In this document: positions 5,868-60,517 of the stretch, piece by piece | How positions within the stretch are numbered: position 1 is the first letter of the stretch | How the letters are laid out: every line of letters starts with the position of its first letter | Notes under the pieces: generated by a model | What the model was told of the DNA's origin: nothing | The model's database searches: none | Seen by the model: the letters and a program-made list of their open reading frames with translations, nothing else | Made by a program: the position numbers and the translations under genes | NCBI GenBank assembly: GCA_963762055.1 | Contig: CAVXJF010000013.1 | Coordinates: 13,877-77,876 of the forward strand | Direction: 5' to 3' | Source: Vicinamibacterales bacterium | GTDB lineage: Bacteria > Acidobacteriota > Vicinamibacteria > Vicinamibacterales > JAMQPK01 | DNA: 64,000 bases

Positions 5868-5951
5868 TCAACTGGCTACTAGCTACCGCTGGACGCTGGC
5901 TACTGGCACTAGCCATAGGCTACTGGCTACTGGCTACAGCTACTGGCTAGC
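5868..5951. repeat. GGCTACT-type heptamer tandem array (locus 1 of 4)
   Basis: actggctactagctaccgctggacgctggctactggcactagccataggctactggctactggctacagctactggctagc. It ends 1 nt before the permease stop codon. Confidence 0.85.
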
Positions 5952-5952
5952 T

Positions 5953-8433
5953 TCACTCATACTTCAGCGCTGCCACCGGATCTACCCGAGCGGCACGGCG
6001 CGCTGGAATGCTCGAGGCGATCAGCACGATAGCCAGCAGAACCCCGGCGCCCGCTGCGAACACAACACCATCGAGCGGGGCCACCTCGTAGAGGAGCGAG
6101 CGCACCGTTCGCGTAAGGGCGGCCGCGACCAGCACGCCGGCGACGGCACCCACGCCGCCGAGCGCCAGGCTCCGCACCAACACGGTCCGGAAGAGTCTCG
6201 CAGGTTCCGCCCCGAGAGCCGAACGCAACGCCAGTTCCTGCCGTCGCGCGCGCACGTCGTACGACAACACGCCATATACGCCGACCGCCGCCAGCAGGAG
6301 CGCGACCATCGAAAACGCGACGCTCACACCAAGCGCCGTGCGCTGGCGCGACAACCCTCGCGCCAGCAGGCTGTCCATGGTTTCGCTCCATTCAATCGCC
6401 GCATCCGGCTCGTGGGCGCGGATCGTCTGCGCAATCATCGGCATGATGCGCTCAGGATCTCCAGCCGTTCGGACGATGAGCTTCGGCTGAAAAAAGAAGA
6501 ACTGCTCGCCCGGGAAATACGCGGTCATCCACGGCTTGGTCAACTCGCGGTAACGAGTGTCCCCCACGACGCCAACGACGGTCGTCCAGGGAAACTTTTC
6601 GCCACTGGCCAACTTGAGGCGTTTGCCGATCGCGCTCTGCCCCGGCCAGTACCGATTGGCGACCGCCTGGGTCACGACTGCCACCGGTGCCGCATTGCCA
6701 TCGTCTGCGGCAGAAAATGCGCGCCCCTGCAGGACCGGTATGTCGAGCGTGCGGAAATGCGACGGCAAGATTGGCTCCCACGTCATCCACGGGTTTAGGG
6801 CCGCTTCTGCCGGCGTCTGCCCCTCGAATACCATCGAAGCGCTCAGGCCAACCGTCGCGCTGCCCGGAGACATGTGAACCGTCGAAGCAGCAGCGACCCC
6901 CGATATCGACTCCACGCGCGGGATCAATTCCTTGAAGAACTGCAGCTTCGTGCGCGCGTCCGGATACTCCATGTCCGGCAGGAGCAGCGTGGTGACGATG
7001 AGATTGTGGGGTTGAAAGCCTCTGTCGATTCGCTGCAGATTGATGAACGACCGTAAAAGCAGTCCTGCCCCGATTGCGATGATCACCGCCGCAGCAATCT
7101 CCGCAACCGTGAAAATCCGCAGACTTCCCGTTGCCCGGACAGCGCGAAACGACGACCGGAGCATCGCCGGATCCGGCGCAGCGCGTGAAGCGCTCCAGAT
7201 GGGGGCTGTCCCGAAGATCAGCGCCCACACGGCGGCGATGCCCATGGAAAAGACCAGGACGCGCCAACCGATTTCGGCATCCACCAGGCGCGGAATGTCC
7301 GGCCCCGCCAGCCATTGAGCCGTCCACAACGCAAGAGTCGCGATGCCAGTAGCGAGGGCGACTCCGCCGACTGCGAGCAGCATGCTCTCGACGATCTGTT
7401 GCCGCAGCAGCCGCCTGCGGCTCGCTCCGAGGGCCGTTCGAACAGCCAGCTCCGTTCGACGAGACTCCGACCGCATCAGCAGCAGCGTCGCCACGTTGAC
7501 GCCGGCAATCACAAACACCAGCGCGGCACCGACCGACAGAAATTGCAGAACCTGATCGCTGCTGCCGAGCACCGTGTTCAGCAGCGGCTCAACCGCGGGG
7601 TTGGTCCGGCTCTCATCGTGCGGGTACGTTTCGCCAAAGCGCCGGCACAGAATATCCAGTTCAGCGTCAGCGGCTTGCGGCGTCACGCCGGGGACCAGCC
7701 GGCCGAGCAGCTCGAAGTGGGCGAATTCGTGGCTCTCGATTTGTTGATTGAGCTCGTCGGCACCGGCACCCGCCATGCCGCCGGCGCCGAAAAAGCTCGG
7801 AATCGGCACCCACATGTCGGTGCCCAGCGGATATTCGAAGCCAGCCGGCGCGATGCCGACCACGGTCAGCCTGCGGCCCCCTCCAGCGGCAGCGAGCTGC
7901 CGCCCGACAAATTCCGGTGCACCGCCCGCTGCCTGCCGCCAGAAGCGCTCGCTCACCACCACGACTTGCGCAGCGCCGGGCAATCCGTCGGACCGCTGAA
8001 ACAATCTGCCATGCTGCGGCGTCCCGGCCCTGAGCACATCGAAGAACTCGACCGACACGGGCGTCAACGCCACGGCGGCAGTGCGATCGCCAACCCTAAT
8101 GGCGATCGACAATGTGTCGGCGTAGTTGATAGCGGCGAGCCCTTCGAAACTCTTGGCTTGATCGCGCCACGCGCGGAACTCCGGATACGAGATGAACAGC
8201 CGCTGCTGATCGCCTACACGGTCGCGTTTCCAGATGCGAACGACACGCTCCTGATCCACCACAATCGGGCGCAGCAGTACCGCATCGACGATGGCGAAAA
8301 TCGCGGTGCTGGCACCAATACCAATCGCCAATGTGAGCAGGGCGACGACGGTAAAGGAAGGGCTCTTGCGAAAGCCGCGGAGGGCGAGCCGGACGTCCTG
8401 AGCCAGGCCGGTCATCGTGTGCGTATCTTGCAT
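5953..8433 (-). CDS. ADOP-family duplicated orphan permease (MacB/FtsX-like, two FtsX domains)
   Basis: 826 aa. N-terminus ...LAQDVRLALRGFRKSPSFTVVALLTLAIGIGASTAIF, with two MacB-periplasmic plus FtsX 4-TM halves. No adjacent ATPase. Alternative start at M7 (8415). Confidence 0.85.
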   Translation of the reverse strand: MQDTHTMTGLAQDVRLALRGFRKSPSFTVVALLTLAIGIGASTAIFAIVDAVLLRPIVVDQERVVRIWKRDRVGDQQRLFISYPEFRAWRDQAKSFEGLAAINYADTLSIAIRVGDRTAAVALTPVSVEFFDVLRAGTPQHGRLFQRSDGLPGAAQVVVVSERFWRQAAGGAPEFVGRQLAAAGGGRRLTVVGIAPAGFEYPLGTDMWVPIPSFFGAGGMAGAGADELNQQIESHEFAHFELLGRLVPGVTPQAADAELDILCRRFGETYPHDESRTNPAVEPLLNTVLGSSDQVLQFLSVGAALVFVIAGVNVATLLLMRSESRRTELAVRTALGASRRRLLRQQIVESMLLAVGGVALATGIATLALWTAQWLAGPDIPRLVDAEIGWRVLVFSMGIAAVWALIFGTAPIWSASRAAPDPAMLRSSFRAVRATGSLRIFTVAEIAAAVIIAIGAGLLLRSFINLQRIDRGFQPHNLIVTTLLLPDMEYPDARTKLQFFKELIPRVESISGVAAASTVHMSPGSATVGLSASMVFEGQTPAEAALNPWMTWEPILPSHFRTLDIPVLQGRAFSAADDGNAAPVAVVTQAVANRYWPGQSAIGKRLKLASGEKFPWTTVVGVVGDTRYRELTKPWMTAYFPGEQFFFFQPKLIVRTAGDPERIMPMIAQTIRAHEPDAAIEWSETMDSLLARGLSRQRTALGVSVAFSMVALLLAAVGVYGVLSYDVRARRQELALRSALGAEPARLFRTVLVRSLALGGVGAVAGVLVAAALTRTVRSLLYEVAPLDGVVFAAGAGVLLAIVLIASSIPARRAARVDPVAALKYE

Positions 8434-8440
8434 CCTTTTT

Positions 8441-8483
8441 CCAGCTACAGGCTACCGGCTATAGTTACGGCTACTGGCTAGCC
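8441..8483. repeat. GGCTACT-type heptamer array (locus 2 of 4)
   Basis: ccagctacaggctaccggctatagttacggctactggctagcc, located 8 nt upstream of the permease start codon. Confidence 0.8.
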
Positions 8484-8524
8484 CGATTGCACCCTTTTCG
8501 ACCGTTCCGACGTATTAGGTTCAG

Positions 8525-9097: not shown

Positions 9098-9446
9098 ACA
9101 TGACCTTCGTCAGGCGCTGAAGCGCAAGGAGCCGCCGCAGGGCTTCAGCGAGAGAGTGCTGAACAAAATCGGATCGAGCGAGGTCGATGTGCCTCACGCG
9201 CCAACGCGATGGCGCCGCTTCGCGCTTCCGATTGCCGCGTCGCTGATGCTGCTCGCAGGCGGCGGCTACTTTGTGCAGCAGCGCAGTGCGCACCAGGCGC
9301 AGGAACAGCAATCGCAGCAATACCGTCAGACCGCGCAGGCAGCACACGATGTAATGCTCGCACTGCAGATCGCCAGTGAAAAGGTGTCGGCGGTGCAAGC
9401 CAAAGTCCAGGAGATGACCCATCATGAACGTCAGAACGACTATTAG
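9087..9446 (+). CDS. Putative anti-sigma factor (single-pass membrane protein)
   Basis: Overlaps the sigma gene by 11 nt. It has a short cytoplasmic N-terminus, one TM (FALPIAASLMLLAGGGYFV) and a Gln-rich tail. Confidence 0.6.
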   Translation: MNLEHDLRQALKRKEPPQGFSERVLNKIGSSEVDVPHAPTRWRRFALPIAASLMLLAGGGYFVQQRSAHQAQEQQSQQYRQTAQAAHDVMLALQIASEKVSAVQAKVQEMTHHERQNDY

Positions 9447-14970: not shown

Positions 14971-16820
14971 GCCGGTGCCTCGCCGGGCTCTGGATCCTGG
15001 TGATGCTGTCCGGCTGCGCGACCGCCACGGCCCTCCGCGACGGGCGGCAAGCGGAAGAGCGGCAGGACTACGATCTGGCTGTCGTCGAATACACGCGCGC
15101 CCTGAACAGCGATCCGGACAGCACGACGGCACGCAGCGGCCTGCAGCGTGCCAGGCTGCGCGCCTCACAGGACCACTTCACTCGTGCCCGCCGTCTTTCC
15201 GCCATGGGGCGGCTCGAAGAAGCCGTCGCCGAGTATCAGCTCGCGTCCGAACTGAACCCGGACAACCGCGTCCTTGCCGATGAACTGAAAGCGACGCAGA
15301 ACCTGCTGCGCGCGAAGGTTCCTGTGAATCGCGACGGCAAGACCGAGCTCGAGGCGCTGGTCGAGCGCATGAAAAATCAGCCTGTGCCGGGCATGGTAGT
15401 GCCCGCCGAGCCGCTGCCAGAGTCGATGAGCTTTCGGAGCGCCGGCAGCGACATCGTCATTCGCGCGCTCGCGCAGCTGGCCAAGGTGAACGTAGTGTTC
15501 GATCCGGCGTTTCAGCCGATACCGATCACCATCGACGTGCGCAATCAGACGTTCGGCGAAGCGCTTCAATCGATTACGAACAGCACAAGAACGTTTTATC
15601 GCGTCACTGCACCGCGCACCATTACCATCATTCCGGACACGCCCGCGAAGCGCAAAGAGTACAAAGCGGAAGTGGTGCGGACCTTCTATCTAAGCAACGC
15701 CGATGTGAAGGAAACGATGGATCTGCTGCGCATCGTGATCGACGCGCGCCGCATCGCTGCAATCGCAGGGACCAACGCCATCACGATCACCGACACCGGC
15801 GAGCGCGTCGTCGCCGCCGGGATGTTGATCGACAGGATCGACAAGGCACGTCCGGAAGTGTTGATCGACGTCGAGGTGCTCGAGGTCAATCGCAACAGAC
15901 TTCGCGAATACGGCCTCCAGCTGGCATCGCCGGGCTCTGGAACGGCCGGGATTAGCGGGAGCATCGACGTCAATCAGCCGGGACTGACGCTCGAAGACCT
16001 CGGAAATCTGACGAGCTCGCAGGTGTTCCTCACTGGCGTTCCCGCGTTGTATTACCGTCTGCTGAAAGAGGACCGGACCACCAGGGTGCTGGCGAATCCT
16101 CAGCTTCGGACCATGGTGGGGATTGCGGCACAGGCGCGATTCGGCGAACAGGTTCCGGTGCCGATTACGCAGTTCTCCCCCATCGCAACGGGCGGTATCG
16201 CACAGCAGCCGATTACCTCGTACGACTATCGCGACATCGGCGTCAACATCGACATCACGCCGAGAGTGCACCTCGACAACGACGTCACGCTTACGCTTGC
16301 CGTGTCCGTCACGAGCGTTTCCGGCGTCGGCTTCGGAGGGATCCCTACTTTCGGCAACCGCTCCATCAAGACGCAGATCAGATTGAAAGACGGCGAGACG
16401 AACATGCTCGCCGGGCTCATCCGCGACGATGAACGGCGGGTGCGTGATGGCATCCCGGGGCTGAGCGATTTGCCTGGCGTCGGACGCATGTTCGGCCACT
16501 CGCGCGACGAGCGCCAGCAGACCGACGTCATTCTGGTGCTGACGCCGCGAATCGTCCGCGTCCTGGAGCTGACGGAGGAAGACCTCCGCGCATTTCAAGT
16601 CGGCCGGGATGCGGGGGCACCCTTTGGAGCCGCCGCACCACCCGGCCCTGCGGCTCCGGCTCCTGGCGGAACTGATCTGCCGCTGCCCGGCAGCCCTCAG
16701 CCCTCGGCTCCCGTGCAACCCGGACCGCTTCCAGGCGCGCCCCCAATTGGGCCGATCTTGCCTCCGGCGCCGCCGCCCCTTCAGCCGCCCCCAAATCCGA
16801 ACCAACCTGCGCCGCAATAA
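14967..16820 (+). CDS. Lipoprotein secretin (GspD/PilQ family) with N-terminal TPR and a Pro-rich C-terminal tail
   Basis: Lipobox LSGC. TPR-like segment. Secretin core LANPQLRTMVG...GETNMLAGLIRDDERRVRDGIPGLSDLPGVGRMFG...DVILVLTPRIV. Final ~60 aa are P-rich. Its ATG overlaps the lolA stop (ATGA). Confidence 0.85.
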   Translation: MSRCLAGLWILVMLSGCATATALRDGRQAEERQDYDLAVVEYTRALNSDPDSTTARSGLQRARLRASQDHFTRARRLSAMGRLEEAVAEYQLASELNPDNRVLADELKATQNLLRAKVPVNRDGKTELEALVERMKNQPVPGMVVPAEPLPESMSFRSAGSDIVIRALAQLAKVNVVFDPAFQPIPITIDVRNQTFGEALQSITNSTRTFYRVTAPRTITIIPDTPAKRKEYKAEVVRTFYLSNADVKETMDLLRIVIDARRIAAIAGTNAITITDTGERVVAAGMLIDRIDKARPEVLIDVEVLEVNRNRLREYGLQLASPGSGTAGISGSIDVNQPGLTLEDLGNLTSSQVFLTGVPALYYRLLKEDRTTRVLANPQLRTMVGIAAQARFGEQVPVPITQFSPIATGGIAQQPITSYDYRDIGVNIDITPRVHLDNDVTLTLAVSVTSVSGVGFGGIPTFGNRSIKTQIRLKDGETNMLAGLIRDDERRVRDGIPGLSDLPGVGRMFGHSRDERQQTDVILVLTPRIVRVLELTEEDLRAFQVGRDAGAPFGAAAPPGPAAPAPGGTDLPLPGSPQPSAPVQPGPLPGAPPIGPILPPAPPPLQPPPNPNQPAPQ

Positions 16821-16821
16821 C

Positions 16822-18372
16822 ATGCGCCGGCAGGGAGTCGCGGCATTGCCTCCTGTGGTGGCGCGCGCGAGCGCTCATGGCACGCGCGTGGCCATCATCG
16901 ACACGCAAGGCTCATACACATACGAGCAGCTCGATCGGTCGTCCTCGGAGATCGCTATCCGGATCCTTGATGGCCGCGAAGATCTCAACGAGAACCGCGT
17001 CGCGTTCCTGATCACTCCCGGGTTCAACTGGGTCGCCGTGCAATGGGCCATCTGGCGCGCGGGCGGGATTTGCGTGCCGTTGCCGATGAACCACCCGCCA
17101 GCCGAGCTCGACTACCTGATTCGGGACGCCGAAACGTCAATCGTTCTCGCCGACGCCGACAATGCCGCGGTTGGCGAGCCCCTCGCGCGATCCTCCGGAG
17201 CGGTGTTTCACACGATTGACCCGCACCCGTCGCATCCAGCAAATGTACGTAGTGTCCGCCTTCAGGCGGACGCGGCGAGTCCGGTTAAAGCCGGACACTA
17301 CGCACAAATGGAAAACGCTCGCGCAACGATCGTTTACACGAGTGGCACGACGGGGCGTCCGAAAGGCGTGGTGACGACACATGCGGCGCTGAACGCGCAG
17401 ATCGAATCGCTCGTCACGGCGTGGGAATGGACCGCTTCAGATCGCACCCTACTGACGCTGCCGCTGCATCACGTCCACGGTATTCTCAACGTCGTGTGCT
17501 GCGCGCTACACAGCGGCGCCGTACTCGAGATGCTGCCGAAATTCGACAGTGAAACTGTGTGGAATCGTCTGTCGTCGGGAGAGCTGACCGTGTTCAGCGC
17601 GGTGCCGACCATCTACCACCGCCTGATTCGTTCATGGGAGGCGGCGAGCCCTGATGTCCAGCAGGCACGTTCTCGCGGATGCCGTGCGATGCGTCTGATG
17701 ATGTCGGGGTCGGCCGCGCTCCCGCGGACTGTTCTCGATCGCTGGCACGAAATCACCGGGCACGTGCTGCTCGAGCGGTATGGCATGACGGAAGTCGGCA
17801 TGGCGCTGTCGAACCCGCTACACGGCACGCGCCGCCCGGGCTTTGTCGGCCAGCCGCTGCCCGGTGTTTCGGCGCGAATCGTCGACGGCGAGCTCCAGCT
17901 GAAAGGACCGGGCGTGTTCTCGGAATATTGGCGGCAGCCCGAGAGCACCGGGGAATCGTTCGTCGATGGCTGGTTTCGCACCGGTGACGCCGCCGTCGTG
18001 GAAGACGGCGCTTACAGGCTGCTCGGACGAACGAGCGTCGACATTCTCAAGAGCGCAGGGCACAAGATCTCTGCGCTCGAAATCGAAGAGGTGCTTCGCA
18101 CGCATCCTTCGATCTCTGAATGTGTGGTCGTCGGTGTCGAGGACGTCGAATGGGGACAGCGCGTCTGCTGCGCGGCCGAACTTCGTGAGGGCGGCACTCT
18201 CGATCTTGACGAGCTGCGGGCGTGGGCCAGGACGCGCCTGGCCCCTTACAAAATCCCGAGGGATCTGGCGTGCGTCAGGCACCTCCCCAGAAATGCCATG
18301 GGCAAAGTCGTCAAACCTGAGGTACTGACACTCTTTGCTCCACCTGCTCGACCTGGGCCCCAAGCATCTTGA
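16822..18372 (+). CDS. AMP-dependent acyl-CoA synthetase/ligase
   Basis: Start at ATG 16822, 2 nt after the secretin TAA. AMP-binding motif IVYTSGTTGRPKGV; GYGMTE-like ERYGMTEVG; C-terminal KIPR...GKV. Confidence 0.85.
   Translation: MRRQGVAALPPVVARASAHGTRVAIIDTQGSYTYEQLDRSSSEIAIRILDGREDLNENRVAFLITPGFNWVAVQWAIWRAGGICVPLPMNHPPAELDYLIRDAETSIVLADADNAAVGEPLARSSGAVFHTIDPHPSHPANVRSVRLQADAASPVKAGHYAQMENARATIVYTSGTTGRPKGVVTTHAALNAQIESLVTAWEWTASDRTLLTLPLHHVHGILNVVCCALHSGAVLEMLPKFDSETVWNRLSSGELTVFSAVPTIYHRLIRSWEAASPDVQQARSRGCRAMRLMMSGSAALPRTVLDRWHEITGHVLLERYGMTEVGMALSNPLHGTRRPGFVGQPLPGVSARIVDGELQLKGPGVFSEYWRQPESTGESFVDGWFRTGDAAVVEDGAYRLLGRTSVDILKSAGHKISALEIEEVLRTHPSISECVVVGVEDVEWGQRVCCAAELREGGTLDLDELRAWARTRLAPYKIPRDLACVRHLPRNAMGKVVKPEVLTLFAPPARPGPQAS
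17248..17302 (+). repeat. REP-like hairpin dimer embedded in frame in the acyl-CoA synthetase CDS
   Basis: cGTAGTGTCCGCCttcaGGCGGACgcggcgaGTCCGGttaaagCCGGACACTACg. It has 11-bp outer inverted arms and two inner hairpins. The second hairpin is the same motif as at 28519-28537 and 36909-36928. Confidence 0.8.
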
Positions 18373-26800: not shown

Positions 26801-28506
26801 TCTGCTCGAAATCAAGAACGAAAACCCTTTCAAGATACGCGCCTATCGAAATGCGTCCGAGACGATCGCTCACGCGACGGAACGTCTCGCGCTTCTCGAC
26901 GAAGACAAGCTGCGCGCGATTCCCGGCATCGGGAAGGATCTCGCGGCGAAGATTCGGGAGATCGCCGAAACCGGAGACGCGCGTTTTCACCGGGAGCTGC
27001 TGGAGCAGTTTCCTCCGACGGTTCTCGATCTCCTCCATCTACAGGGCGTGGGTCCCAAAACGGTCGCACAGCTCTACACCGAGCTCGGTATCAAGACCAT
27101 CGAAGAGCTCGAGGCCGCGTGCGCCGACGGCCGCGTCCGCGGCCTCAAAGGCCTCGGTAAGAAAAAAGAAGAAATGATTCTTGAAGGCCTGCGCGGAGCG
27201 CAAGCAGCACAGCGGCAGGCAACTGCTTCCCGACGCGCACGAGGCGGCGATGCTCCTCCTCGGTTACCTCCGCGCGGAATGCCCCACGGTCGTGTTCGAA
27301 CACGTCGGCAGCATCCGCCGCGGCGCGGAGACCTCCGGTGACATCGACATTCTCGCATCGGTCCCTCAACCAGGCTCGGGAGATGGGCATGACTCGCCGG
27401 TGATGTCCACGTTCACGACCTACAAGCTCGTCGAGCGGATCCTCGGACAGGGCGACACGAAATCGAGCGTGCGCTTGCAGGGCGGCATCCAGGCGGACCT
27501 GCGGCTCGTGCCTGAGGAAAGCCGCGGAGCAGCAATGCAATATTTCACCGGTTCGAAATCACACAACATCGCACTCCGCGACAGAGCCATCTCGCGGGGG
27601 TTCAAACTCAACGAGTACGGACTATTCCGGGTAGAGGAAGGGAACGCGGTTGCCGGACGAACCGAGGCGGAGATCTACGCGGCGCTGGGTCTGCCTGAGA
27701 TTGCGCCCGAGCTTCGAGAGGGACGCGGCGAGATTGAGGCGGCCGAGCGCGGGGCGCTTCCGGATCTGGTGAGGCTCGAAGACATTCAGGGGGACATCCA
27801 CGCACACACGACCGAATCGGATGGCCGCGACGACATCGAAACGATGGCCCTGGCTGCGCGCCAGGCAGGGCTGAAGTACCTCGCGATTACCGATCACAGC
27901 AAGTCGCTCGCGATGGCCAACGGCCTCGACGAATCTCGAGTCCGTCAGCACGCGCGGCGGGTGCGGGAGATCAGCGGCAGGCTCGAGGGTATCACGCTGC
28001 TCGCCGGCATCGAATGCGACATCAGGCCGGACGGCTCGATGGACCTGGCCGATGACTGCCTCGCCGAGCTCGACGTCGTCATCGCATCAGTACATTCCGC
28101 GTTCAACCAGGAAGCAGCGCAGATGACGGAACGCGTGCTGCGGGCGATCTCGAATCCGTTCGTCGATATCCTCGGCCATCCTACCGGGCGCATTCTGCTG
28201 CGCCGCGAACCGTACAAGCTGGACATCAACGCTGTCATCGATACCGCGATCGCCACAGGTGTTGCTCTCGAGATCAACGCACAGGTCGACCGACTGGATT
28301 TGTCGGACGTCAACGCCAGGGCCGCACGCGACCGCGGCGCGAAGCTGGTGGTCAGCACCGACGCGCACAGCAAGAGCGCCTTCGGGAGAATGAAATGGGG
28401 CGTACAAGTCGCCCGCCGCGCCTGGCTTACGAAGGACGATGTGCTGAACACGCGCGATAGGGAAGGGTTTAAAGCCGCGCTGAGGAGAAACAGAAGGTCC
28501 GGGTAA
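26757..28506 (+). pseudogene. polX: Family X DNA polymerase with C-terminal PHP domain (PolX), interrupted by a 1-nt frameshift
   Basis: HhH/8-kDa and fingers part in ORF 26757..27341 (ENPFKIRAYRNA...IPGIGKDLAAKI...LQGVGPKTV...GLGKKKEEMILEGL). It continues in the +1 frame, ORF 27181..28506 (ERKQHSGRQLLPDAHEAAMLLLGYL, GDIDIL, PHP HAHTTESDG...DHS...SVHS...STDAH). The junction is at the GG at 27195-27196. Confidence 0.85.
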
Positions 28507-28867
28507 GGTCCGGCAGAAGTCCGGCTAAAGCCGGAACTACGTTTTCGATTGTCGACCGTCGACTTTCGACTCTCGACCTCGAGTTTCGACTCTCGACTTT
28601 CGACTTTTGACTCTCGACTTTTGACTTTCGCCTTTCGCCTTTCGCCTTTCGACTCTTCGGCCCACCCCGCTCCCTCGCCCAGTCCGACCGCATCTGCGCG
28701 AGCCCGTCCATGTAGACCGCAACCCGCTCGCGTTCCTCTTCGCTCTGCATCGACTTCAACAAATCGATTGCCTTCGCGAAATCTTCGGCAATCGTCGCGC
28801 GCGAGGTCTGGTAATACAGCCGTTTGATCTCGGCGTGTTTGTCGTCCGCCGACAACATCCTGATCAT
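28469..28867 (-). CDS. Hypothetical protein; structured N-terminus (~65 aa) plus a K/R/S/E tail encoded by the heptamer array
   Basis: MIRMLSADDKHAEIKRLYYQTSRATIAEDFAKAIDLLKSMQSEEERERVAVYMDGLAQMRSDWARE looks protein-like. The rest (KSKVESQKSKVESRNSRSRVESR...) is read-through of the 7-nt repeat. Its ATG overlaps the upstream stop (ATGA). Confidence 0.45.
   Translation of the reverse strand: MIRMLSADDKHAEIKRLYYQTSRATIAEDFAKAIDLLKSMQSEEERERVAVYMDGLAQMRSDWARERGGPKSRKAKGERRKSKVESQKSKVESRNSRSRVESRRSTIENVVPALAGLLPDLTRTFCFSSARL
28507..28540 (+). repeat. REP-like hairpin (GTCCGGCTAAAGCCGGAAC) with a duplicated half-site
   Basis: ggtccggcagaaGTCCGGCtaaaGCCGGAac, immediately after the PolX TAA. The same motif occurs at 36909-36928 and 17279-17296. 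Confidence 0.75.
28541..28660. repeat. TCGACTT/TCGCCTT heptamer tandem array (~16 units)
   Basis: ...tcgactt tcgactc tcgacc tcgagtt tcgactc tcgactt tcgactt ttgactc tcgactt ttgactt tcgcctt tcgcctt tcgcctt tcgactc... Confidence 0.9.
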
Positions 28868-33651: not shown

Positions 33652-33741
33652 CGCGACTTTGGACTCTGGACTCTTTGGACTCTCGGACTCTGGACTCTTG
33701 GACTCTTGGACTCTTTCGACTCCCAGACTCCCCGACTCCCC
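33652..33741. repeat. GGACTCT (7/8-nt) tandem array occupying the whole KH-rimM intercistronic spacer
   Basis: gactttggactctggactctttggactctcggactctggactcttggactcttggactctttcgactcccagactccccgactcccc. It is bounded by the rimM ATG (33651) and the KH-protein stop (33742). Confidence 0.9.
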
Positions 33742-34265: not shown

Positions 34266-34333
34266 GTACTGCTTCTCCTCACTGAACTACGAACTAAGGT
34301 CTACACTGCGAACCAAGTCGACCGTGATTATCC

Positions 34334-34368
34334 AGATCTTAGGTCTCAGATCCTGAGATCTCAGAATC
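34334..34368. repeat. AGATCTN heptamer array (5 units) between ffh and rpsP
   Basis: agatctt aggtctc agatcct gagatct cagaatc. It contains the TCTCAG/CTGAGA hairpin. Confidence 0.6.
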
Positions 34369-35783: not shown

Positions 35784-35811
35784 CCGGAACCGGAACTCGG
35801 AACCAGGAACC
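35784..35811. repeat. CGGAACN heptamer array (4 units)
   Basis: ccggaac cggaact cggaacc aggaacc. Confidence 0.6.
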
Positions 35812-35880
35812 ATTGGTAGCGCTAAGCTGCTCTAGCGCAAACGCTTATCGTAGCGGATGGGAGGGGAAACTGTCAATTGA

Positions 35881-35949
35881 AAGGGGTTAGGGGTGAAGGG
35901 CAAGGGGCAATGGTTTTACCCCTCGCCCCCTCACCCCTTGCCCCTTTTC
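35881..35949. repeat. Inverted G-rich / C-rich heptamer arms (AGGGGTN x4 ... CCCCTNN x4); G-quadruplex motif on each strand
   Basis: Plus strand: GGGGttaGGGGtgaaGGGcaaGGGG (35883-35907). Minus strand: GGGGcaaGGGGtgaGGGGGcgaGGGG (35944-35919). The arms are separated by caatggtttta, directly 3' of the cupin gene stop. Confidence 0.8.
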
Positions 35950-36894
35950 TTATTTCGGATTCTGTGCCTCGTAGGAATGCGACAGATCCGTAAAGCCATT
36001 CATCGCAAGGCGGCACGACATGCTGTCGCCCGCGAAACTTGCGAGATGGAACCGCTGTTTCGGCACGTACACGATGTCGCCCTGGTCGGCCTCGAACACC
36101 TGCATTCCTTCGATGTTGTATCGAATCTTTCCGAGCAGGATGAACCAGAACTCGGCGCTTTCCGGATGGAAATGGCCGCGCTCGGTGAGGGGCGGCGGCG
36201 GAATGCCCTTTCCGAGGATGATGTTCGCGACCGCGCGATCGTCGTGTACGAAACGGCGCGTGTCGTCCTTGCCTGCAACGACAGCGTTGAAATCGACATA
36301 CGGCTTATTGCCTTCGGTGTAGGTGCCCTGCCCGGGCACGCGAACGGGCACAAAGGTGAATCCGGCGAGCGGCACGGGCTTCACGTCCATCGGATACATC
36401 TTCCGGGCCTTCGCGATGTTCACTTCGTACCGCAGAGAAGGCCGGTCGCCGACGGTCTCCATCTCATACATGGTGCGATACGGCACCTGAACGAGGTACC
36501 CCTTCGACGCCACGAACGGCTGCTGGCCGTCGATGGTGAAGCGAATCTGTCCGTCCTGAACCACCCACCATTCGCGGGTGTCGGCGTTCATACGGCGAGG
36601 CGTCTTGTTGCCCGGAGCCATCGCGATATAGGCGGCGTGGAGCGTGTCATCGTCGACGATGACTTCGGTCCAGTCGGCGTGCCCTTTGTGCTTCGCCAGC
36701 ACGTCGACGAGCTTCGTGTGGGGCTTGTGCGGCGGCACCCACTCATTCAGCTTGATCCCTTTCGGGGCCCAGACCATCTGACCCGGAGGGGGCCCGCCTC
36801 CGCGCCGCGCGGGCGGCGCCTGGGGCGCTTCCTGCGCCGAGACAACAGCAAACCCGGCGAGGATCACGGCGAGTCCGACTGCGCGTATTTTCAT
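35950..36894 (-). CDS. Secreted bicupin-domain protein
   Basis: Signal peptide MKIRAVGLAVILAGFAVVSAQE and two cupin-like halves (REWWVVQDGQIRFTIDG...; AEFWFILLGKIRYNIEG...GDIVYVP). Confidence 0.65.
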   Translation of the reverse strand: MKIRAVGLAVILAGFAVVSAQEAPQAPPARRGGGPPPGQMVWAPKGIKLNEWVPPHKPHTKLVDVLAKHKGHADWTEVIVDDDTLHAAYIAMAPGNKTPRRMNADTREWWVVQDGQIRFTIDGQQPFVASKGYLVQVPYRTMYEMETVGDRPSLRYEVNIAKARKMYPMDVKPVPLAGFTFVPVRVPGQGTYTEGNKPYVDFNAVVAGKDDTRRFVHDDRAVANIILGKGIPPPPLTERGHFHPESAEFWFILLGKIRYNIEGMQVFEADQGDIVYVPKQRFHLASFAGDSMSCRLAMNGFTDLSHSYEAQNPK

Positions 36895-36908: not shown

Positions 36909-36951
36909 GGTCCGGCTAAAGCCGGACCACTTTCGACTTTCCACTTTCGCC
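36909..36951 (+). repeat. REP hairpin (GGTCCGGCtaaaGCCGGACC) followed by ACTTTCG heptamers
   Basis: Perfect 8-bp stem with a 4-nt loop at 36909-36928, then actttcg actttcc actttcg cc. This is the same architecture and orientation as 28507-28660. Confidence 0.85.
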
Positions 36952-38199
36952 TTACACCGAAGATAGCTTATGCCCCATCTTGTCCTTCTTCGTCTTCAAA
37001 TATCGCCTCGTGGAGTCCGACGCGGGGATCTCCAGCGGAATCCACTCCGAGATGCTCAACCCGTAGCCCTCGATGCCGACCAGCTTGCGCGGATTATTAC
37101 TCAGCAGCCGCATCGAGCGCACGCCTAACTCTCTGAGAATCTGCACCCCGATGCCGTAGTCCCGCTGGTCCGCCTTGAAGCCGAGCTTTTCGTTCGCTTC
37201 TACCGTGTCCAGCCCCTGATCTTGCAGCTCGTACGCGCGAATCTTGTTCGCCAGGCCGATGCCCCGCCCCTCCTGGTTGAGATACAGGAGCACGCCGCGA
37301 CCTTCCTCCGAAATCCGCTGCATCGCCGCATCGAGCTGGCCGCCGCAATCGCACCGCAGCGAATGGAGCACGTCACCGGTGAGGCACTGTGAATGCACGC
37401 GCACGATGACGTCCGTTCCGGAACCGATGTCGCCGGCGACAAGCGCGACGTGCGTCTGCTTGTCGAGCTGGTTCTCGAAGGCATGCATCTCGAACTCGCC
37501 GAACTGGGTGGGCAGCTTCGCCTTCGCCACCTCCTTCACCATCGACTCGTTGTGCATCCGGTACTTGATCAAATCCGCGATCGTGATCATCAGCAGACCG
37601 TGGCGCTTCCCGAACTTCGTCAGTTCCGGCACGCGCGCCATGGAGCCGTCATCGTTCATGATTTCGCAGATGACGCCCGCTGGATACAGTCCGGCGATGC
37701 GCGCCAGATCCACGGCCGCTTCGGTCTGGCCGGCGCGCACCAGGACGCCGCCTGACTGGGCGCGGAGCGGAAACATGTGGCCCGGGCGGGCGAGGTCTGA
37801 CGGCTTCGTGCGGGGATCGATCGCGGCGAGCACCGTGTTGGCCCGATCGCCGGCCGAGATGCCGGTGGACGTCGAATGTTTCGCTTCGATCGTGACGCAG
37901 AACGCCGTGCCCAGGCGCGCCGTGTTCTGATTCACCATCAGAGGAATGTCGAGCTCATCCAGCCGCTCGCCCGTCATCGGCATGCAGATCAGCCCGCGGC
38001 CGTACTTGGCCATGAAGTTGACGGCTGTCGGCGTCACCCGCTCGGCCGCAAGCGTGAGATCTCCTTCGTTCTCGCGATCTTCGTCGTCGCAGACGATGAT
38101 GATCTCGCCGGCGCGGAATGCTTCGATCGCGTCTTCGACGCGCGCGAACGGACTGCCCTTCTTCTTGCGGCCTTTGGCGATTTTCAGCGGTGGGGTCAT
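36952..38199 (-). CDS. ribBA: Bifunctional 3,4-dihydroxy-2-butanone-4-phosphate synthase / GTP cyclohydrolase II
   Basis: IIVCDDEDRENEGDL..., HSTSTGISAGDRA, and the cyclohydrolase part VRVHSQCLTGDVLHSLRCDCGGQL...EGRGIGL. Start at MTPPLK (38199). Confidence 0.9.
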   Translation of the reverse strand: MTPPLKIAKGRKKKGSPFARVEDAIEAFRAGEIIIVCDDEDRENEGDLTLAAERVTPTAVNFMAKYGRGLICMPMTGERLDELDIPLMVNQNTARLGTAFCVTIEAKHSTSTGISAGDRANTVLAAIDPRTKPSDLARPGHMFPLRAQSGGVLVRAGQTEAAVDLARIAGLYPAGVICEIMNDDGSMARVPELTKFGKRHGLLMITIADLIKYRMHNESMVKEVAKAKLPTQFGEFEMHAFENQLDKQTHVALVAGDIGSGTDVIVRVHSQCLTGDVLHSLRCDCGGQLDAAMQRISEEGRGVLLYLNQEGRGIGLANKIRAYELQDQGLDTVEANEKLGFKADQRDYGIGVQILRELGVRSMRLLSNNPRKLVGIEGYGLSISEWIPLEIPASDSTRRYLKTKKDKMGHKLSSV

Positions 38200-42560: not shown

Positions 42561-42592
42561 CTAATCGCTACTGGCTATCGGCTACTGGTTAG
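42561..42592. repeat. GGCTACT-type heptamer array (locus 3 of 4)
   Basis: ctaatcgctactggctatcggctactggttagg, located 3' of cinA. Confidence 0.7.
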
Positions 42593-46076: not shown

Positions 46077-47054
46077 GTGCCAGGTGCAATGAATCTCGTC
46101 ATCACGTGGCGCGCAAATTATGAGGCAGAACGACTTGTGATACAAGGACTTCCCGTGCCGCTGATTGAATGTGTGCCGAACGTGAGCGATGGACGCCGTG
46201 CCGATGTCATTGCCGCGCTCGAAGCCGCGATTGCCGTCCCTGGCGTGCATCTGCTCGATCAGACGTCCGACCTGTCGCACAACCGATCCGTTTTTACGTT
46301 CGCGGGCGAGCCAAATATTGTGCAAGAAGCCGTACTTCGGCTGTTCGACACCGCCATCAATGCAATCGACCTCCGGACGCACGAAGGCGTACACCCGCGA
46401 ATCGGCGCCGTGGACGTCGTCCCGTTCGTTCCGCTCCGCGATGCGACGATGGAACTGTGCGTCGCAGTGGCGGCCGAGGTCGGCAGGACCGTGGCCGGCC
46501 GCTTTGGCCTGCCCGTATTTCTGTATGAAGAGGCCGCATCATCGGACGACCGGCGGAACCTCGCGGAAGTGCGGCGTGGGGGTCTCAACGGGCTCGCGCA
46601 TCGTATGCGGCAACCCGAGTGGAAACCCGACTTCGGTCCCGACCAACCGCACCCCAGCGCAGGCGCAACGGCGATCGGTGCTCGCCCGATCCTGATCGCG
46701 TACAACGTGAACCTCGCCACCACCCGTCTGAGCGTCGCGAAGCGCATCGCTTCGGTCATCCGTGCCAGCGGCGGCGGTCTGCCGTTCGTCAAGGCGATGG
46801 GCGTGCCTCTGGAGAATCGAGGGGTGGTTCAGGTATCGATGAACCTGACGAACTACCAGGAAACGTCGATGGTCACGGTGTTCGACGCGATCGCGAAAGA
46901 GGCATCGGCGGACGGCGTGCGAATACTCGAAAGCGAAATCGTCGGGCTCGTCCCGTCAAACGCGCTTCCTAACGAGCCCGCGAGGCGCCTGAAGCTGCGC
47001 TCTGAAGATCTCGGCAAGACATTGGAAGCGCGGCTAGCTGGCACTAGCCAGTAG
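46077..47054 (+). CDS. Glutamate formimidoyltransferase (FtcD N-terminal type)
   Basis: LIECVPNVSDGRRADVI...NRSVFTFAG...HPRIGAVDVVPFVP.... The start is uncertain (GTG 46077, ATG 46089 or GTG 46154). The last 7 codons lie inside the GGCTACT-type array. Confidence 0.8.
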   Translation: MPGAMNLVITWRANYEAERLVIQGLPVPLIECVPNVSDGRRADVIAALEAAIAVPGVHLLDQTSDLSHNRSVFTFAGEPNIVQEAVLRLFDTAINAIDLRTHEGVHPRIGAVDVVPFVPLRDATMELCVAVAAEVGRTVAGRFGLPVFLYEEAASSDDRRNLAEVRRGGLNGLAHRMRQPEWKPDFGPDQPHPSAGATAIGARPILIAYNVNLATTRLSVAKRIASVIRASGGGLPFVKAMGVPLENRGVVQVSMNLTNYQETSMVTVFDAIAKEASADGVRILESEIVGLVPSNALPNEPARRLKLRSEDLGKTLEARLAGTSQ

Positions 47055-47120
47055 CTACCGACTCGCTTTGCTACCAGCCTCAGGACTACCGGCCACTGGC
47101 TATTGGCTACTGGCTAGCTG
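47032..47120. repeat. GGCTACT-type heptamer array (locus 4 of 4), partly in both orientations
   Basis: ggctagctggcactagccagtagctaccgactcgctttgctaccagcctcaggactaccggccactggctattggctactggctagctg. It sits between convergent genes. Confidence 0.8.
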
Positions 47121-47131
47121 CACCGCACCCA

Positions 47132-48529: not shown

Positions 48530-48543
48530 TGTGGTTTGTACTT

Positions 48544-48615
48544 CACCGCAGAGGCGCGGCGGCGCAAAGAGTTTTTTCTAAAGGCAATTTGCAGCGTCCC
48601 CGCGTCTCTGCGGTG
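48544..48615. repeat. 16-nt inverted repeat in the kinase-regulator intergenic spacer
   Basis: CACCGCAGAGGCGCGG (48544-48559) and CCGCGTCTCTGCGGTG (48600-48615), with one mismatch and a 40-nt loop. Confidence 0.6.
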
Positions 48616-48626
48616 AGATTCCGTAC

Positions 48627-51298: not shown

Positions 51299-51320
51299 CG
51301 CCAGTACCCGTAACAAGAGC

Positions 51321-51378
51321 CCAGGAGATCAGGAGGTCCTGGCATTTTTGAAAAGATCTCCTGACCTTTTGATCTCCT
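51321..51378. repeat. Palindromic AGGAGATC / GATCTCCT repeat block
   Basis: ccAGGAGATCAGGAGGTCctggcatttttgaaaaGATCTCCTGACCttttGATCTCCTg, between the membrane-protein stop and the nrdR start. Confidence 0.65.
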
Positions 51379-51380
51379 GT

Positions 51381-52406
51381 TCAAGGTTCCCCCTCAGCCG
51401 CTGCGTGCGCGAGATTGCGAACCGCGCCGATACCGAGACCGTCTTGAATCAGAAACAGCGCGCCGAGCACGACCGTGGGCAGCAGCGACACCGCATGGAG
51501 CACGAGCGCGGCGCCGACGGCTCGATCGTTCGGCACGCCATAAAACGAGGTGAGGCCAATTTGCACCGCCGCCTCGAATCCGCCGACCCCGCCGGGCGTG
51601 GGCACCGACACGCCGACGACCAGCAGCGCGATGATGAGAAACGATCCGGTGAACGGCATGTCGATATTGAACGCCCGGGTCACCATCCAGATGCCCGCGC
51701 CTATCGACAGCCACAGGGGAAACGACCACAGAAGCGCCGAGGCAAGACGTCTGGGAGTGCGGACGACAGCAAGGCCCTCGGAAAACTTCAGCAGCACTCC
51801 CGCCAGCTTGTGCGTCAGACGTCCCGGCAGCAGATGTTCGAGCTTGTACGCCCATCGGCCGGCGGCCTCAGGATCTCGCGCGGCGACGAACATCGCCCAC
51901 AGCGCCGCCAGCGCCAATACGCCGACAATGAGCGCACCGAGCTCGACGAGCCCGTACAGCCGGCTGTCGGCGCGATCCATCCCGGGATCGAAAAACAGCA
52001 CGAACGAAGCGAGCAGCATCACGCACGTGATCGCGTCGAGCAGACGCTCAATGATGATGGTGGCGAACGTCGCCGTCGCGCTCAAGCCTTCCTGCCGGGC
52101 GAGCAGATATGGGCGAATGACCTCACCGGCGCGAGCCGGAAGCACCGCACTGGCAGCAAAGCCGATCATCGTCGTGCGGAATGCCGGGCCAAACCGCGCC
52201 GGGCCGATCGGCGCGAGCAGGTACTGCCACCTGAGCGCGCGGAACACCATCGTCAGCACGGTGATGGCGCTTGACAGGGCCAGCAGCCATTGTTCGGCGC
52301 CCTTGATCTCGGCCCAGACCACGTCGAGGTGCGCCCCGCGCAAGAAAAGCGCGAAGAGGCCGACAGACAGCGCGATGACGATTATGGTGCGGGCGTGTTT
52401 TCGCAT
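51381..52406 (-). CDS. Flippase-like / lysylphosphatidylglycerol-synthase-TM-region family membrane protein (UPF0104)
   Basis: 341 aa, ~8 TM. MRKHARTIIVIALSVGLFALFLRG...RALRWQYLL... pattern. Confidence 0.65.
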   Translation of the reverse strand: MRKHARTIIVIALSVGLFALFLRGAHLDVVWAEIKGAEQWLLALSSAITVLTMVFRALRWQYLLAPIGPARFGPAFRTTMIGFAASAVLPARAGEVIRPYLLARQEGLSATATFATIIIERLLDAITCVMLLASFVLFFDPGMDRADSRLYGLVELGALIVGVLALAALWAMFVAARDPEAAGRWAYKLEHLLPGRLTHKLAGVLLKFSEGLAVVRTPRRLASALLWSFPLWLSIGAGIWMVTRAFNIDMPFTGSFLIIALLVVGVSVPTPGGVGGFEAAVQIGLTSFYGVPNDRAVGAALVLHAVSLLPTVVLGALFLIQDGLGIGAVRNLAHAAAEGEP

Positions 52407-53688: not shown

Positions 53689-53716
53689 TTAAGCACTCAC
53701 CCCTTGACAGTGCTAA
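53689..53716 (+). promoter_or_regulatory. Degenerate CIRCE-like inverted repeat overlapping the -35 box
   Basis: TTAAGCACTC-acccc ttga-CAGTGCTAA, compared with the consensus TTAGCACTC-N9-GAGTGCTAA. Confidence 0.5.
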
Positions 53717-53732
53717 TTCGGAGGGTTAAATT
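53704..53732 (+). promoter_or_regulatory. Sigma-70-type promoter of groES-groEL
   Basis: TTGACA (53704-53709), 17-nt spacer, TAAATT (53727-53732). Confidence 0.6.
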
Positions 53733-53757
53733 AGCACTCTTGTAAGGCGAGTGCTAA
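53731..53757 (+). promoter_or_regulatory. CIRCE operator (HrcA binding site)
   Basis: Perfect match: TTAGCACTC-ttgtaaggc-GAGTGCTAA. Confidence 0.9.
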
Positions 53758-54180: not shown

Positions 54181-55830
<1,650 letters not shown>

Positions 55831-55842
55831 CTGACGCTGTAA

Positions 55843-55960
55843 GTAAAAAGTCGAAAGTAGAAAGTAGAAAGTGTAAAGGCCCGGCGGAGAAACTCTGCCG
55901 GGCCTTTACTTTTTACTTCTTACTTTTTACTTTTTACTTTTACTTTCGACTTTCGACTAC
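55843..55960. repeat. Inverted heptamer arms (GTNGAAA x5 ... TTTNNAC x8) flanking the groEL terminator
   Basis: Left arm: gtaaaaa gtcgaaa gtagaaa gtagaaa gtgtaaa. Right arm: cctttac tttttac ttcttac tttttac tttttac ttttac tttcgac tttcgac. Confidence 0.85.
55873..55915 (+). terminator. Rho-independent terminator of groEL (bidirectional with tonB)
   Basis: GTAAAGGCCCGGC-ggagaaactct-GCCGGGCCTTTAC followed by TTTTT. Confidence 0.85.
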
Positions 55961-55966
55961 CCCGCA

Positions 55967-57367: not shown

Positions 57368-57380
57368 CTACCCTCGCCTT

Positions 57381-57899: not shown

Positions 57900-58007
57900 G
57901 TTAATCTATCGGTACTCGCTGGCATTGCTGGTACAATCAGACGCGTCGATTTGTCCCACGGACGCTAGATTTCACGTCAGTTTCAGTCAGCCAGCAAGGA
58001 GCCAGCA

Positions 58008-58169
58008 ATGGGTCGGATTGGTTTGCCGGAGCTTTTCATCATCCTCTTCATCGTCGTTCTGATCTTCGGCGCGAACCGCCTGCCGCAGCTCGCCACGGGC
58101 ATCGGCAAGTCGATTCGCAGCTTCAAAGACGGGATGAAAGAGGGCGACGACAACAACAAGAACGGCTAA
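58008..58169 (+). CDS. tatA: Twin-arginine translocase subunit TatA/E (53 aa; below the ORF-track cutoff)
   Basis: MGRIGLPELFIILFIVVLIFGANRLPQLATGIGKSIRSFKDGMKEGDD..., preceded by AAGGAG 7 nt upstream. Confidence 0.85.
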   Translation: MGRIGLPELFIILFIVVLIFGANRLPQLATGIGKSIRSFKDGMKEGDDNNKNG

Positions 58170-60436: not shown

Positions 60437-60467
60437 TAACGTGAATATAGTCGGAAGTGGGGGGGCA

Positions 60468-60517
60468 GGAATTGAAAATTGAAAATTGAAAATTGAGGAT
60501 TGGGGATTGGGGATTCG
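60468..60517. repeat. AATTGAA x4 then GATTGGG x3 heptamer array
   Basis: gg aattgaa aattgaa aattgaa aattgag gattggg gattggg gattcgc, between the rnr start and the stop of the glycerate kinase gene. Confidence 0.85.

Follow-up and report, generated by a model that had tools for sequence, protein, structure and literature searches.

Tandem arrays of short, mostly seven-nucleotide units in the intergenic spacers of a Vicinamibacterales genome

The DNA analysed here, called the window throughout, is a stretch of 64,000 nucleotides (nt) from a Vicinamibacterales bacterium (assembly GCA_963762055.1, contig CAVXJF010000013.1, positions 13,877 to 77,876), and the subject of this work is a series of tandem arrays of short units, most often of 7 nt, found at 12 loci in these 64 kb, all of them non-coding or within a low-complexity protein tail. 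This order belongs to the Acidobacteriota, a phylum that ranks with the most abundant bacteria of soils and whose genetics has been little studied. An earlier note, made from the sequence alone, had proposed a high-GC, probably acidobacterial host with arrays resembling the short tandemly repeated repetitive (STRR) sequences of cyanobacteria. The proposed host is borne out by Ffh, whose closest relatives among 185,579 species genomes belong to Vicinamibacterales and Acidobacteriota metagenome-assembled genomes (MAGs; 57-82% identity), while the GroEL of the window is encoded identically on the ENA contig ERZ25039504:contig_8799. A gene map derived from codon usage and checked with Pfam assigned 60.8 kb to coding DNA and about 3.1 kb to intergenic DNA, about 95% of the genome being coding. 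The neighbours of the arrays on this map are mostly ordinary housekeeping genes. A scan of the 64-kb window revealed no tRNA or tmRNA, and no Rfam 15 family matched the window at the gathering threshold.

Array loci and neighbouring genes

Arrays were called with Tandem Repeats Finder (TRF) and with a lag-match (lag-autocorrelation) test for periods 2-15, the latter compared with dinucleotide-preserving shuffles. In the whole window, five strong regions were found for period 7 vs. 0-1 for each of the other periods and none in the shuffles. Restricting the test to the roughly 3.1 kb of intergenic DNA (200 dinucleotide shuffles, on a gene map that is rough) gave seven regions for period 7, one for period 8, none for period 6 and close to none in the shuffles; the comparison of periods that the earlier note had asked for is thereby settled in favour of period 7. 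The 60.8 kb of coding DNA contained no period-7 region. As a whole, the intervals first reported total about 0.78 kb, i.e. approximately one quarter of the spacer DNA on this rough map. TRF recovered the arrays where they had been reported, except at 42561-42592, which is under the TRF threshold and was found by pattern matches only, with three overlapping matches to GGCTACTGGCTA. The same arrays are present at the same loci in independent ENA assemblies.

The modal unit is 7 nt, with a spacing of 6-9 nt inside some arrays. GGCTACT recurs at four loci of the window, always in the same orientation, and units of the GACTTTC/GACTCTC type recur at four others (28541, 33652, 36929 and both arms of 55843-55960), so that the initial impression of each locus having its own unit does not hold. 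Nor is the 7-nt period, rather than the sequence, the constant feature: the spacing drifts within arrays, sister genomes carry 8- or 9-nt units, and the units themselves recur across loci.

Concerning the GGCTACT arrays, the first one (5868-5951, plus strand; TRF 5896-5949, 8 copies) directly follows the stop codon of an ADOP-family duplicated permease gene (5953-8433, minus strand), and the second (8441-8483, plus strand; TRF 8444-8480) occupies the divergent spacer between the start codon of this gene and an ECF sigma factor gene. The permease, which is thus bracketed by direct arrays, was identified with TIGR03434 (728 bits vs. a cutoff of 622) and with the Pfam domains MacB_PCD and FtsX; ADOP is a hallmark family of acidobacteria. 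The third array is short (42561-42592, plus strand) and lies between the cinA stop and the plsY start. As for the fourth, an array at 47086-47120 (TRF 47086-47116) is accompanied by a partial inverted copy at 47032-47060, with a minus-strand match at 47045-47056. This locus (47032-47120) is the convergent spacer between a formiminotransferase gene and an NtrC-like gene, the inverted copy supplying the formiminotransferase stop codon, and a motif of about 39 nt is common to it, to the 42561 locus and to the conspecific contig L085.

The longest array, (TTTCGAC)n at 28541-28660 on the plus strand, has about 17 units (TRF 28543-28659, 16.7 copies, score 120). It is separated from the PolX stop codon by a GC hairpin, TCCGGCTAAAGCCGGA (28520-28535), which belongs to a REP-like (repetitive extragenic palindromic) family and is a terminator-like site. 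The same hairpin, followed by 3.6 units of ACTTTCG (36911-36951, plus strand; TRF 36929-36953), lies between the ribBA stop and the cupin gene start. This hairpin thus adjoins two ACTTTCG arrays (hairpins at 28520-28535 and 36911-36926), and the conspecific contig L083 has extra GGACACTACGTAC copies at both places. A REP-like double hairpin (GTAGTGTCCGCC..GGCGGAC / GTCCGGTTAAAGCCGGACACTAC; 17244-17306) was also seen in frame within an acyl-CoA synthetase open reading frame (ORF; 16609-18372).

Three further arrays surround ffh or belong to the neighbouring rpsP operon. Within this operon, 11 units of GGACTCT / GGACTCTT, made of a GACTC core and a linker of 2-4 nt, fill the entire spacer between the stop of a KH-protein gene and the rimM start (33652-33741, plus strand; TRF 33655-33741, a mixture of 7 and 8 nt). 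A short AGATCTN array (34334-34368) stands between the ffh stop and the rpsP start and was returned by TRF with a period of 15, i.e. 7+8 (34333-34365). About four CGGAACN units (35784-35811, plus strand; same coordinates by TRF) lie downstream of the conserved ffh promoter, in the 5' leader of this gene. Upstream of this promoter, AGGGGTN and CCCCTNN units form an inverted pair (35881-35949, minus strand; TRF 35919-35945), a long, terminator-like hairpin just past the cupin gene stop. Read on the minus strand, the order upstream of ffh is therefore the cupin stop, a repeat-built hairpin, a TTGACA-N18-TACGAT promoter-like site (35876-35847), the CGGAAC-array leader and ffh. In the 250 nt upstream of ffh (L002-L017), the Vicinamibacterales have kept a promoter/leader core of the form TTGAC(A)-N17/18-TACGATAAGGGTTTGCGC, with repeat arrays inserted on either side of it in different genomes; the arrays therefore lie between real signals.

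The convergent groEL/tonB spacer holds the inverted arrays (AAGTAGA)n and (TTTACTT)n/(ACTTTCG)n (55843-55960; TRF 55841-55872 and 55905-55958), which flank a core hairpin with a GC-rich stem of 17 bp (55873-55909). Finally, (AATTGAA)4 followed by (GATTGGG)3 (60468-60517, plus strand; TRF 60470-60515, with 100% and 94% matches) separates the stop codon of the glycerate kinase gene from the RNase R start. On the RNase R mRNA strand this spacer is free of G from 60437 to about 60514, and 60437-60519 is predicted to be unstructured (minimum free energy of 0 kcal/mol). The non-transcribed strand of the same leader (60459-60515) reads as a G7 run, the AATTGAA array and then (GGGGATT)3.

The statement that the arrays sit between a stop codon and the next gene holds for most loci and fails for two of them: the 28541-28660 array lies inside a small ORF, and 47032-47054 overlaps the end of the formiminotransferase gene. 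A further revision concerns 35881-35949, 47032-47120 and 55843-55960, which had been taken for simple direct arrays and are all three inverted array pairs. The fold predicted for the groEL/tonB spacer (55831-55966) reaches -64.8 kcal/mol on the plus strand and -60.0 kcal/mol on the minus strand (z = -9.6 and -9.2), that of 35870-35955 on the minus strand -53.4 kcal/mol (z = -7.15), and that of 47028-47131 on the plus strand a z of -2.7, while the direct arrays fold weakly. The suggestion of a transcript-end structure can be kept, at the level of predicted folding, for the three inverted-pair loci with their stable hairpins after stop codons. The groEL/tonB hairpin (55873-55909) is the best terminator-like site in the 40-60 kb segment and agrees with the terminator consensus on the plus strand; from its predicted fold, 55843-55960 looks like a bidirectional terminator. 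The 35881-35949 hairpin is followed by UUU only, and the totals of terminator-like sites in the consensus scan were not above the shuffle expectation.

Two other spacer hairpins were noted in the window. The first (48543-48616), between the NtrC-like and an NtrY-like gene, is a 23-nt inverted repeat with 87% complementarity; in the second (51312-51381), a CAGGAGATC-type motif occurs twice, each copy forming one arm, with a T-rich loop in the middle. Upstream of groES-groEL, a perfect CIRCE operator, TTAGCACTC-N9-GAGTGCTAA (53731-53757), is preceded by a degenerate second copy (53690-53716), and both copies overlap a TTGACA-N17-TAAATT promoter; this region (53690-53757) is a classic HrcA-type heat-shock control region.

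Differences between strains

Exact-protein look-ups retrieved conspecific contigs from four other assemblies, with identities to the window of 99.7%, 99.1%, 98.8% and 98.5%; a fifth locus, on an error-rich contig, is 91.8% identical, and L082 is clearly error-rich. As there is no exact match to the window among the four ENA assemblies, the window represents another strain or assembly of this species. Genes such as groES and rimM are split in the ENA contigs by single-base indels, as expected for long-read assemblies. The comparison at the ADOP locus relies on one strain (L085), and the 60468 array lies outside the strain comparison.

The differences between strains are concentrated in the arrays. 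Per aligned site, they amount to 12-17% in the arrays, 0.65-0.8% in the genes and 0.5-3.2% in the other non-coding DNA, the density in the arrays being 15-25 times that of the genes. With respect to contig L001, the groEL spacer gathers 4 of 25 differences across 7.6 kb within its 118-nt array. Length changes proceed by whole units: the 33652 spacer measures 90 nt in the window (11 units), 83 nt in L082 (10 units), 96 nt in L083 (12 units) and 75 nt in L084 (9 units). The interval 28507-28665, which contains the hypervariable 28541 array, has 159 nt in the window, 144 nt in L082, 142 nt in L083 and 144 nt in L084, and unit variants also differ between the strains. In L083 the 36929 and 42561 arrays are rewritten, the latter being strongly different. 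As for the short arrays (3-5 units) at 34334, 35784 and 35881, they are unchanged between strains (34334 is identical in L082-L084, and 35881 is nearly invariant), an invariance that fits the expected dependence of slippage on copy number. This variation is the behaviour of a slippage-prone microsatellite, with an instability that rises with copy number, and the whole-unit differences between strains about 99% identical are in line with one of the roles first proposed for the arrays, that of a spacer whose copy number varies by strand slippage.

A larger difference was found at the ADOP locus. In L085 (98.5% identity to the window), the ECF sigma factor gene comes directly after the HAD hydrolase gene and the counterpart of 5950-8440 is absent according to BLAST, so that the GGCTACT arrays at 5868-5951 and 8441-8483 form the left and right breakpoints of a 2.5-kb indel. 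Positions 3916-3949 of L085 align to both arrays of the window (5916-5949 and 8441-8474); the junction therefore lies within GGCTACT repeats. Either the gene was deleted by recombination between the direct arrays, or it arrived within an array.

The 28541 array also reaches into a protein. A conserved small ORF (28469-28867, minus strand, start at 28867), which matches no Pfam family, ends in a C-terminal tail rich in K, R, E and S that is encoded by the heptamer array. Beyond the conspecific contigs, tblastn showed its first 68 residues or so to be conserved at 12 Vicinamibacterales loci, and all the homologues finish with a short K/R-rich tail. On the minus strand, (GTCGAAA)n encodes VESRKSK repeats, and a perfect array yields the same heptapeptide repeat in all three frames. 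The length predicted for the protein is 132 amino acids (aa) in the window, and 104 and 97 aa in L084 and L083, respectively, with different exit frames.

Relatives, metagenomes and known repeats

The Ffh loci of other genomes were surveyed for strong arrays, defined by a TRF score of at least 38 and at least 3.5 copies. Other Vicinamibacterales loci (344 kb) contained 9 arrays of period 7, 12 of period 8 and 5 of period 9, vs. 14, 0 and 0 in other Acidobacteriota (488 kb, mostly Terriglobia) and 1, 0 and 3 in other phyla (576 kb). Among the Vicinamibacterales, L004-L006 have 8-nt units only, and L007 and L011 a mix of 7, 8 and 9 nt. The second group includes a locus labelled Candidatus Dormibacterota (L029) with units seen in acidobacterial loci: GTCAGTG, CGAGTAC and CCAACGA are shared with L022, L031 and L032, which are Terriglobia loci. 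Either this contig is mis-binned, or the trait reaches beyond the Acidobacteriota.

The spacer arrays of sister Vicinamibacterales are often inverted pairs that give long hairpins (L004 1432-1548, L005 9797-9889, L006 6613-6709), and repeat-built hairpins were predicted in L004, L005 and L006 and, more weakly, in L002 (z from -3.1 to -8.3). In 13 of 17 relatives the KH-rimM spacer measures 11-77 nt, vs. 90-143 nt in the window, L002, L004 and L011, where it has been independently expanded by unrelated repeat units. In several genomes, arrays flank ffh with a different unit in each. An enrichment specifically next to ffh was considered and discarded, being only about 2-fold and explained by the long spacers there. 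GGCTACT and GACTTTC were not found in the Ffh loci of other genomes. The phenomenon is broadly acidobacterial, with a complete turnover of the unit sequences and a period that is preferred by lineage and not constant.

In a set of JGI metagenome contigs that carry (GGCTACT)n (L089-L168, 400 kb), 160 period-7 arrays were counted vs. 2-4 for each of periods 6, 8 and 9, and 80 period-7 arrays in these contigs have units other than GGCTACT. On 69 high-GC metagenome contigs with rough gene calls, the orientation of (GGCTACT)n relative to the neighbouring genes was 20 vs. 25 at 3' ends and 13 vs. 14 at 5' ends; this absence of bias speaks against a sequence-specific RNA function. A transcription-oriented trap for read-through, in which AGTAGCC in the mRNA would offer TAG in all frames, holds in five cases in the window, is confounded by gene strand bias, was not seen in the 69 contigs and does not extend to the other units, which lack stops; it was rejected. 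CsrA-type GGA motifs at 33652 and 35784 were rejected as well, since they are on the non-transcribed strand, judging from the sequence. The palindromes in the units (TCGA, GATC, CCGG, AATT), considered as possible methylation-site arrays, would be present in about one third of random heptamers.

Heptanucleotide STRR arrays are a feature of heterocystous cyanobacteria and were reportedly described by Mazel et al. in 1990, and PMC4692102 mentions them. The units of STRR1-3 are CCCCAGT, TTGGTCA and CAACAGT. The arrays of the window agree with them in being tandem, dispersed, almost all intergenic, sometimes inverted and made of few recurring units per genome. STRR1 and STRR3 contain the ACTG/CAGT core that is also enriched here. 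The phylum and the units are different: the units of the window are not those of STRR1-3, the host is a member of the Vicinamibacterales, 8-nt variants occur, sister genomes prefer 8 nt, and the density of arrays per kb of spacer looks very high for a genome that is about 95% coding. They are not STRRs in the strict sense, even though the STRR-like traits are all present: head-to-tail units of about 7 nt in at least 3 copies and in statistical excess, many dispersed copies in non-coding DNA (the low-complexity protein tail being the sole exception), a small set of units recurring per genome, as also in L042, L056 and L057, and a copy number that is unstable between close strains. They are no CRISPR arrays either, with contiguous units of 7-8 nt and none of the spacers that separate repeats of 23-50 nt.

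Heptanucleotides are the most abundant class among the long simple sequence repeats (SSRs) of most bacterial genomes, and polymerase slippage has been proposed as their cause (Mrazek et al. 2007, after the summaries in PMC4679880 and PMC4692102); a published proposal ascribes the 7-nt preference to a slippage-favouring DNA-polymerase footprint. With the surveyed long SSRs with units of 5-11 nt (Mrazek, Guo & Shah 2007, after the same two summaries; Huang & Mrazek 2014), the resemblance extends to a 7-nt excess confined to non-coding DNA, to proposed slippage and to the lack of a link with pathogen phase variation. The arrays described here differ from the surveyed repeats in being imperfect and far denser, and strain-level gain and loss of units and a gene-scale indel are directly seen. 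The 2014 survey found perfect repeats of at least three units (pattern 7n3) 'normally represented' in four acidobacterial genera (Huang & Mrazek, PMC4060949).

The GGGAATC arrays of Xanthomonas and the GGGGA(C/T)T arrays of Nostoc are intergenic, often inverted and variable in length between close relatives (PMC4692102). Like them, the arrays of the window are intergenic heptamers that often form inverted pairs in convergent spacers and are kept between the same genes with extensive variation in length and sequence, and the array at 60492-60515 even has the GGGGATT unit; unlike these repeats, which were studied as formers of G-quadruplexes, the units found here belong to many coexisting families and are for the most part not G-rich. 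The TAACTGA repeats of marine Beggiatoaceae, cyanobacteria and Bacteroidetes, tentatively linked to local rearrangement (PMC4679880), are likewise heptamer spacer repeats with a scattered phylogeny, and the AACTGAG arrays of Terriglobia are one base away from them. They consist of one dominant unit placed mostly upstream of starts, whereas many units without any rule of position or orientation are found here.

The literature searched linked no heptamer repeats to the Acidobacteria and contained no GGCTACT unit, in agreement with the earlier note, which knew of no description for this clade. A general heptanucleotide excess in bacteria is already published (PMC4679880 and PMC4692102). The arrays are the acidobacterial counterpart of the cyanobacterial STRRs and of the bacterial long SSRs; this kind of repeat is known already from cyanobacteria, Xanthomonas and others, and the literature searched gave no description of it for the Acidobacteriota.

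Origin and possible role of the arrays

We consider it likely that the arrays are hypermutable STRR-like repeats of short units, made and remodelled by slippage and by exchange between units, tolerated where the reading frame is irrelevant, in some cases co-opted as long hairpin arms behind stop codons, and capable of mediating indels on the scale of a gene and of varying the tail of a protein. The arrays would grow, shrink and be rewritten via slipped-strand mispairing and unequal exchange between units, slippage being the presumed cause of the unit indels observed between strains. As a 7-nt unit breaks the reading frame, arrays would survive only where the frame is immaterial, namely in spacers and in one disordered basic tail, where changes in unit number alter the length and the exit frame of the predicted protein. 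Most of them are probably near-neutral filler between real signals (terminator, promoter, leader and ribosome-binding site). The inverted pairs would lengthen the stems of hairpins after stops, which, on the basis of their predicted stability, probably serve as terminators or in 3'-end protection, and template switching may keep their arms matched. Direct arrays of the same unit at different loci would be substrates for recombination that adds or removes whole genes, as illustrated by the ADOP indel.

Several observations weigh against this explanation. That the unit stays the same in both arms of the inverted pairs calls for an additional process, be it template switching or selection for pairing. 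Arrays that take up about one quarter of the spacer in a genome that is about 95% coding are hard to reconcile with strictly neutral junk. The four GGCTACT loci share the motif of about 39 nt and a conserved CTGGCTAGC end, and GACTTTC-like units are present at four loci, whereas local slippage alone predicts unrelated units. An exact 19-mer of (GGCTACT)n, equal to about 2.7 perfect units, occurs in at least 120 JGI metagenome contigs with GC contents of 0.37-0.73, from many contig series and samples. Among 38 acidobacterial genome-unit combinations, ACTG, CTGA and AACT are enriched 4-5 fold vs. letter-shuffled units; in the metagenome set without GGCTACT-like units, the top 4-mers are CGAA, ATTC, CCCG, CTCA and CTGA, and ACTG is not among them, so that the ACTG enrichment is a lead only. 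Finally, some of the differences between strains could be long-read assembly errors, even though whole-unit changes are not the usual type of sequencing error.

That the arrays are primarily selected functional RNA elements, with the hairpins as terminators or 3'-end stabilisers and the unstructured tracts as spacers of untranslated regions, is possible, if doubtful. Three loci of the window and at least four in relatives are inverted pairs with very stable predicted hairpins just after stops, the groEL/tonB hairpin is the top terminator-like site of its 20-kb segment, and a repeat-built hairpin is found upstream of ffh in both the window and L005, with different units. The majority of the loci are nevertheless direct arrays with little or no structure, their presence at orthologous spacers is patchy, and terminator-like sites overall do not exceed the shuffles. 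The near-invariance of the inverted pairs between strains, where direct arrays vary, would also suit such a function, but it may reflect their short arms of 4-6 units.

It is unlikely that the arrays were spread as copies of a small dispersed mobile or recombinationally spread element, akin to a miniature inverted-repeat transposable element (MITE) or to REPs, instead of arising by local slippage. This idea draws on the CAGGACTAnnnGCnACTGGCTAT...GGCTACTGGCTAGC sequence that the GGCTACT loci share beyond the simple unit, their identical orientation at all four places, the 2.5-kb gene bracketed by two of them and absent in a sister strain, the wide occurrence of the unit in the at least 120 metagenome contigs and the genuine REP-like hairpin family next to two arrays. 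A MITE or a REP-like element would have a full-length conserved sequence with terminal inverted repeats and/or a target-site duplication, or else an associated transposase, while the GGCTACT loci share only the motif of about 39 nt and one end, which the metagenome copies lack. Neither terminal inverted repeats nor target-site duplications nor a transposase were seen at the loci of the window; each genome contains many different units, lengths differ by single units between strains, and other Vicinamibacterales loci do not contain the units. In REPs, a sequence of 20-40 nt is conserved, and a REP-associated tyrosine (RAYT) transposase goes with them. The arrays resemble REPs and bacterial interspersed mosaic elements (BIMEs) as intergenic hairpins, often placed after stops, that can mediate rearrangements; their hairpins are built from variable tandem units without a conserved sequence across loci, and the REP-like TCCGGCTAAAGCCGGA hairpin is a separate entity.

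A sequence-biased process conserved across phyla, of which the arrays would be the output or the target, seems distinctly unlikely to us. A lineage-specific replication or repair enzyme, or a single-strand-binding protein, would dictate the length and sequence of the units, and the arrays would be recombination sites through which accessory genes such as ADOP permeases come and go, as well as building blocks of terminator hairpins. The basis for this view is the limited vocabulary of units (an ACTG/AACTGA-type core, GGCTACT, GGGGATT, AACTGAG), together with a period that depends on the lineage (7 in Terriglobia and 8 in part of the Vicinamibacterales).

We regard as improbable that the arrays are contingency (phase-variation) loci, in which copy number would switch or tune adjacent genes or alter a protein. 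Copy number is indeed polymorphic, as in the contingency loci of host-adapted bacteria, arrays abut the start codons of rimM (33651) and of the ADOP gene (8433), and the tail of the small ORF changes in length and exit frame between strains (132, 104 and 97 aa). But contingency loci mostly have units of 1-5 nt in coding regions or promoter spacers of genes for surface structures. The arrays of the window are placed after stops, in leaders or in a C-terminal tail, none being in an N-terminal coding region or between -35 and -10 elements; their neighbours are mostly housekeeping genes, and the tail array gives a similar peptide in all frames and hence no on/off switch. Moreover, the organism is a free-living soil bacterium, whereas host adaptation was linked to units of 1-4 nt, not 7 (PMC4060949).

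The inference of the earlier note that a 7-bp period, two-thirds of a helical turn, was selected for phased protein binding or DNA curvature now appears very improbable, as it was built on a constant period that in fact varies within arrays and between lineages. This genome does show a strong preference for period 7, which is the sole one in the Terriglobia loci, and cold-shock proteins bind about one heptamer each on single strands (PMC4679880). The spacing nonetheless drifts between 6 and 9 nt within arrays, sister genomes have 8- or 9-nt units at equivalent places, copy number is unconstrained, there is no orientation bias, and the unit sequences are many and unrelated. An assembly or sequencing artefact, which the frameshift-type errors of the related long-read ENA contigs might suggest, is refuted for practical purposes by the same arrays at identical loci in independent assemblies and by similar ones in short-read JGI metagenomes and many MAGs.

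If hypermutable repeats occupy a quarter of acidobacterial spacer DNA, then gene calling, assembly, strain typing and the annotation of promoters and terminators are all affected; gene prediction has to deal with open frames that continue through arrays, as in the small protein with its array-encoded tail, whose end is placed differently by different gene callers. The arrays could serve as ready-made markers with a variable number of tandem repeats (VNTRs), and the array-bounded loss of the ADOP gene could be a concrete route by which repeats drive differences in gene content between strains. The lineage-specific choice of 7 or 8 nt, together with the recurrence of units in unrelated bacteria, offers a handle on why bacteria favour heptanucleotide repeats.

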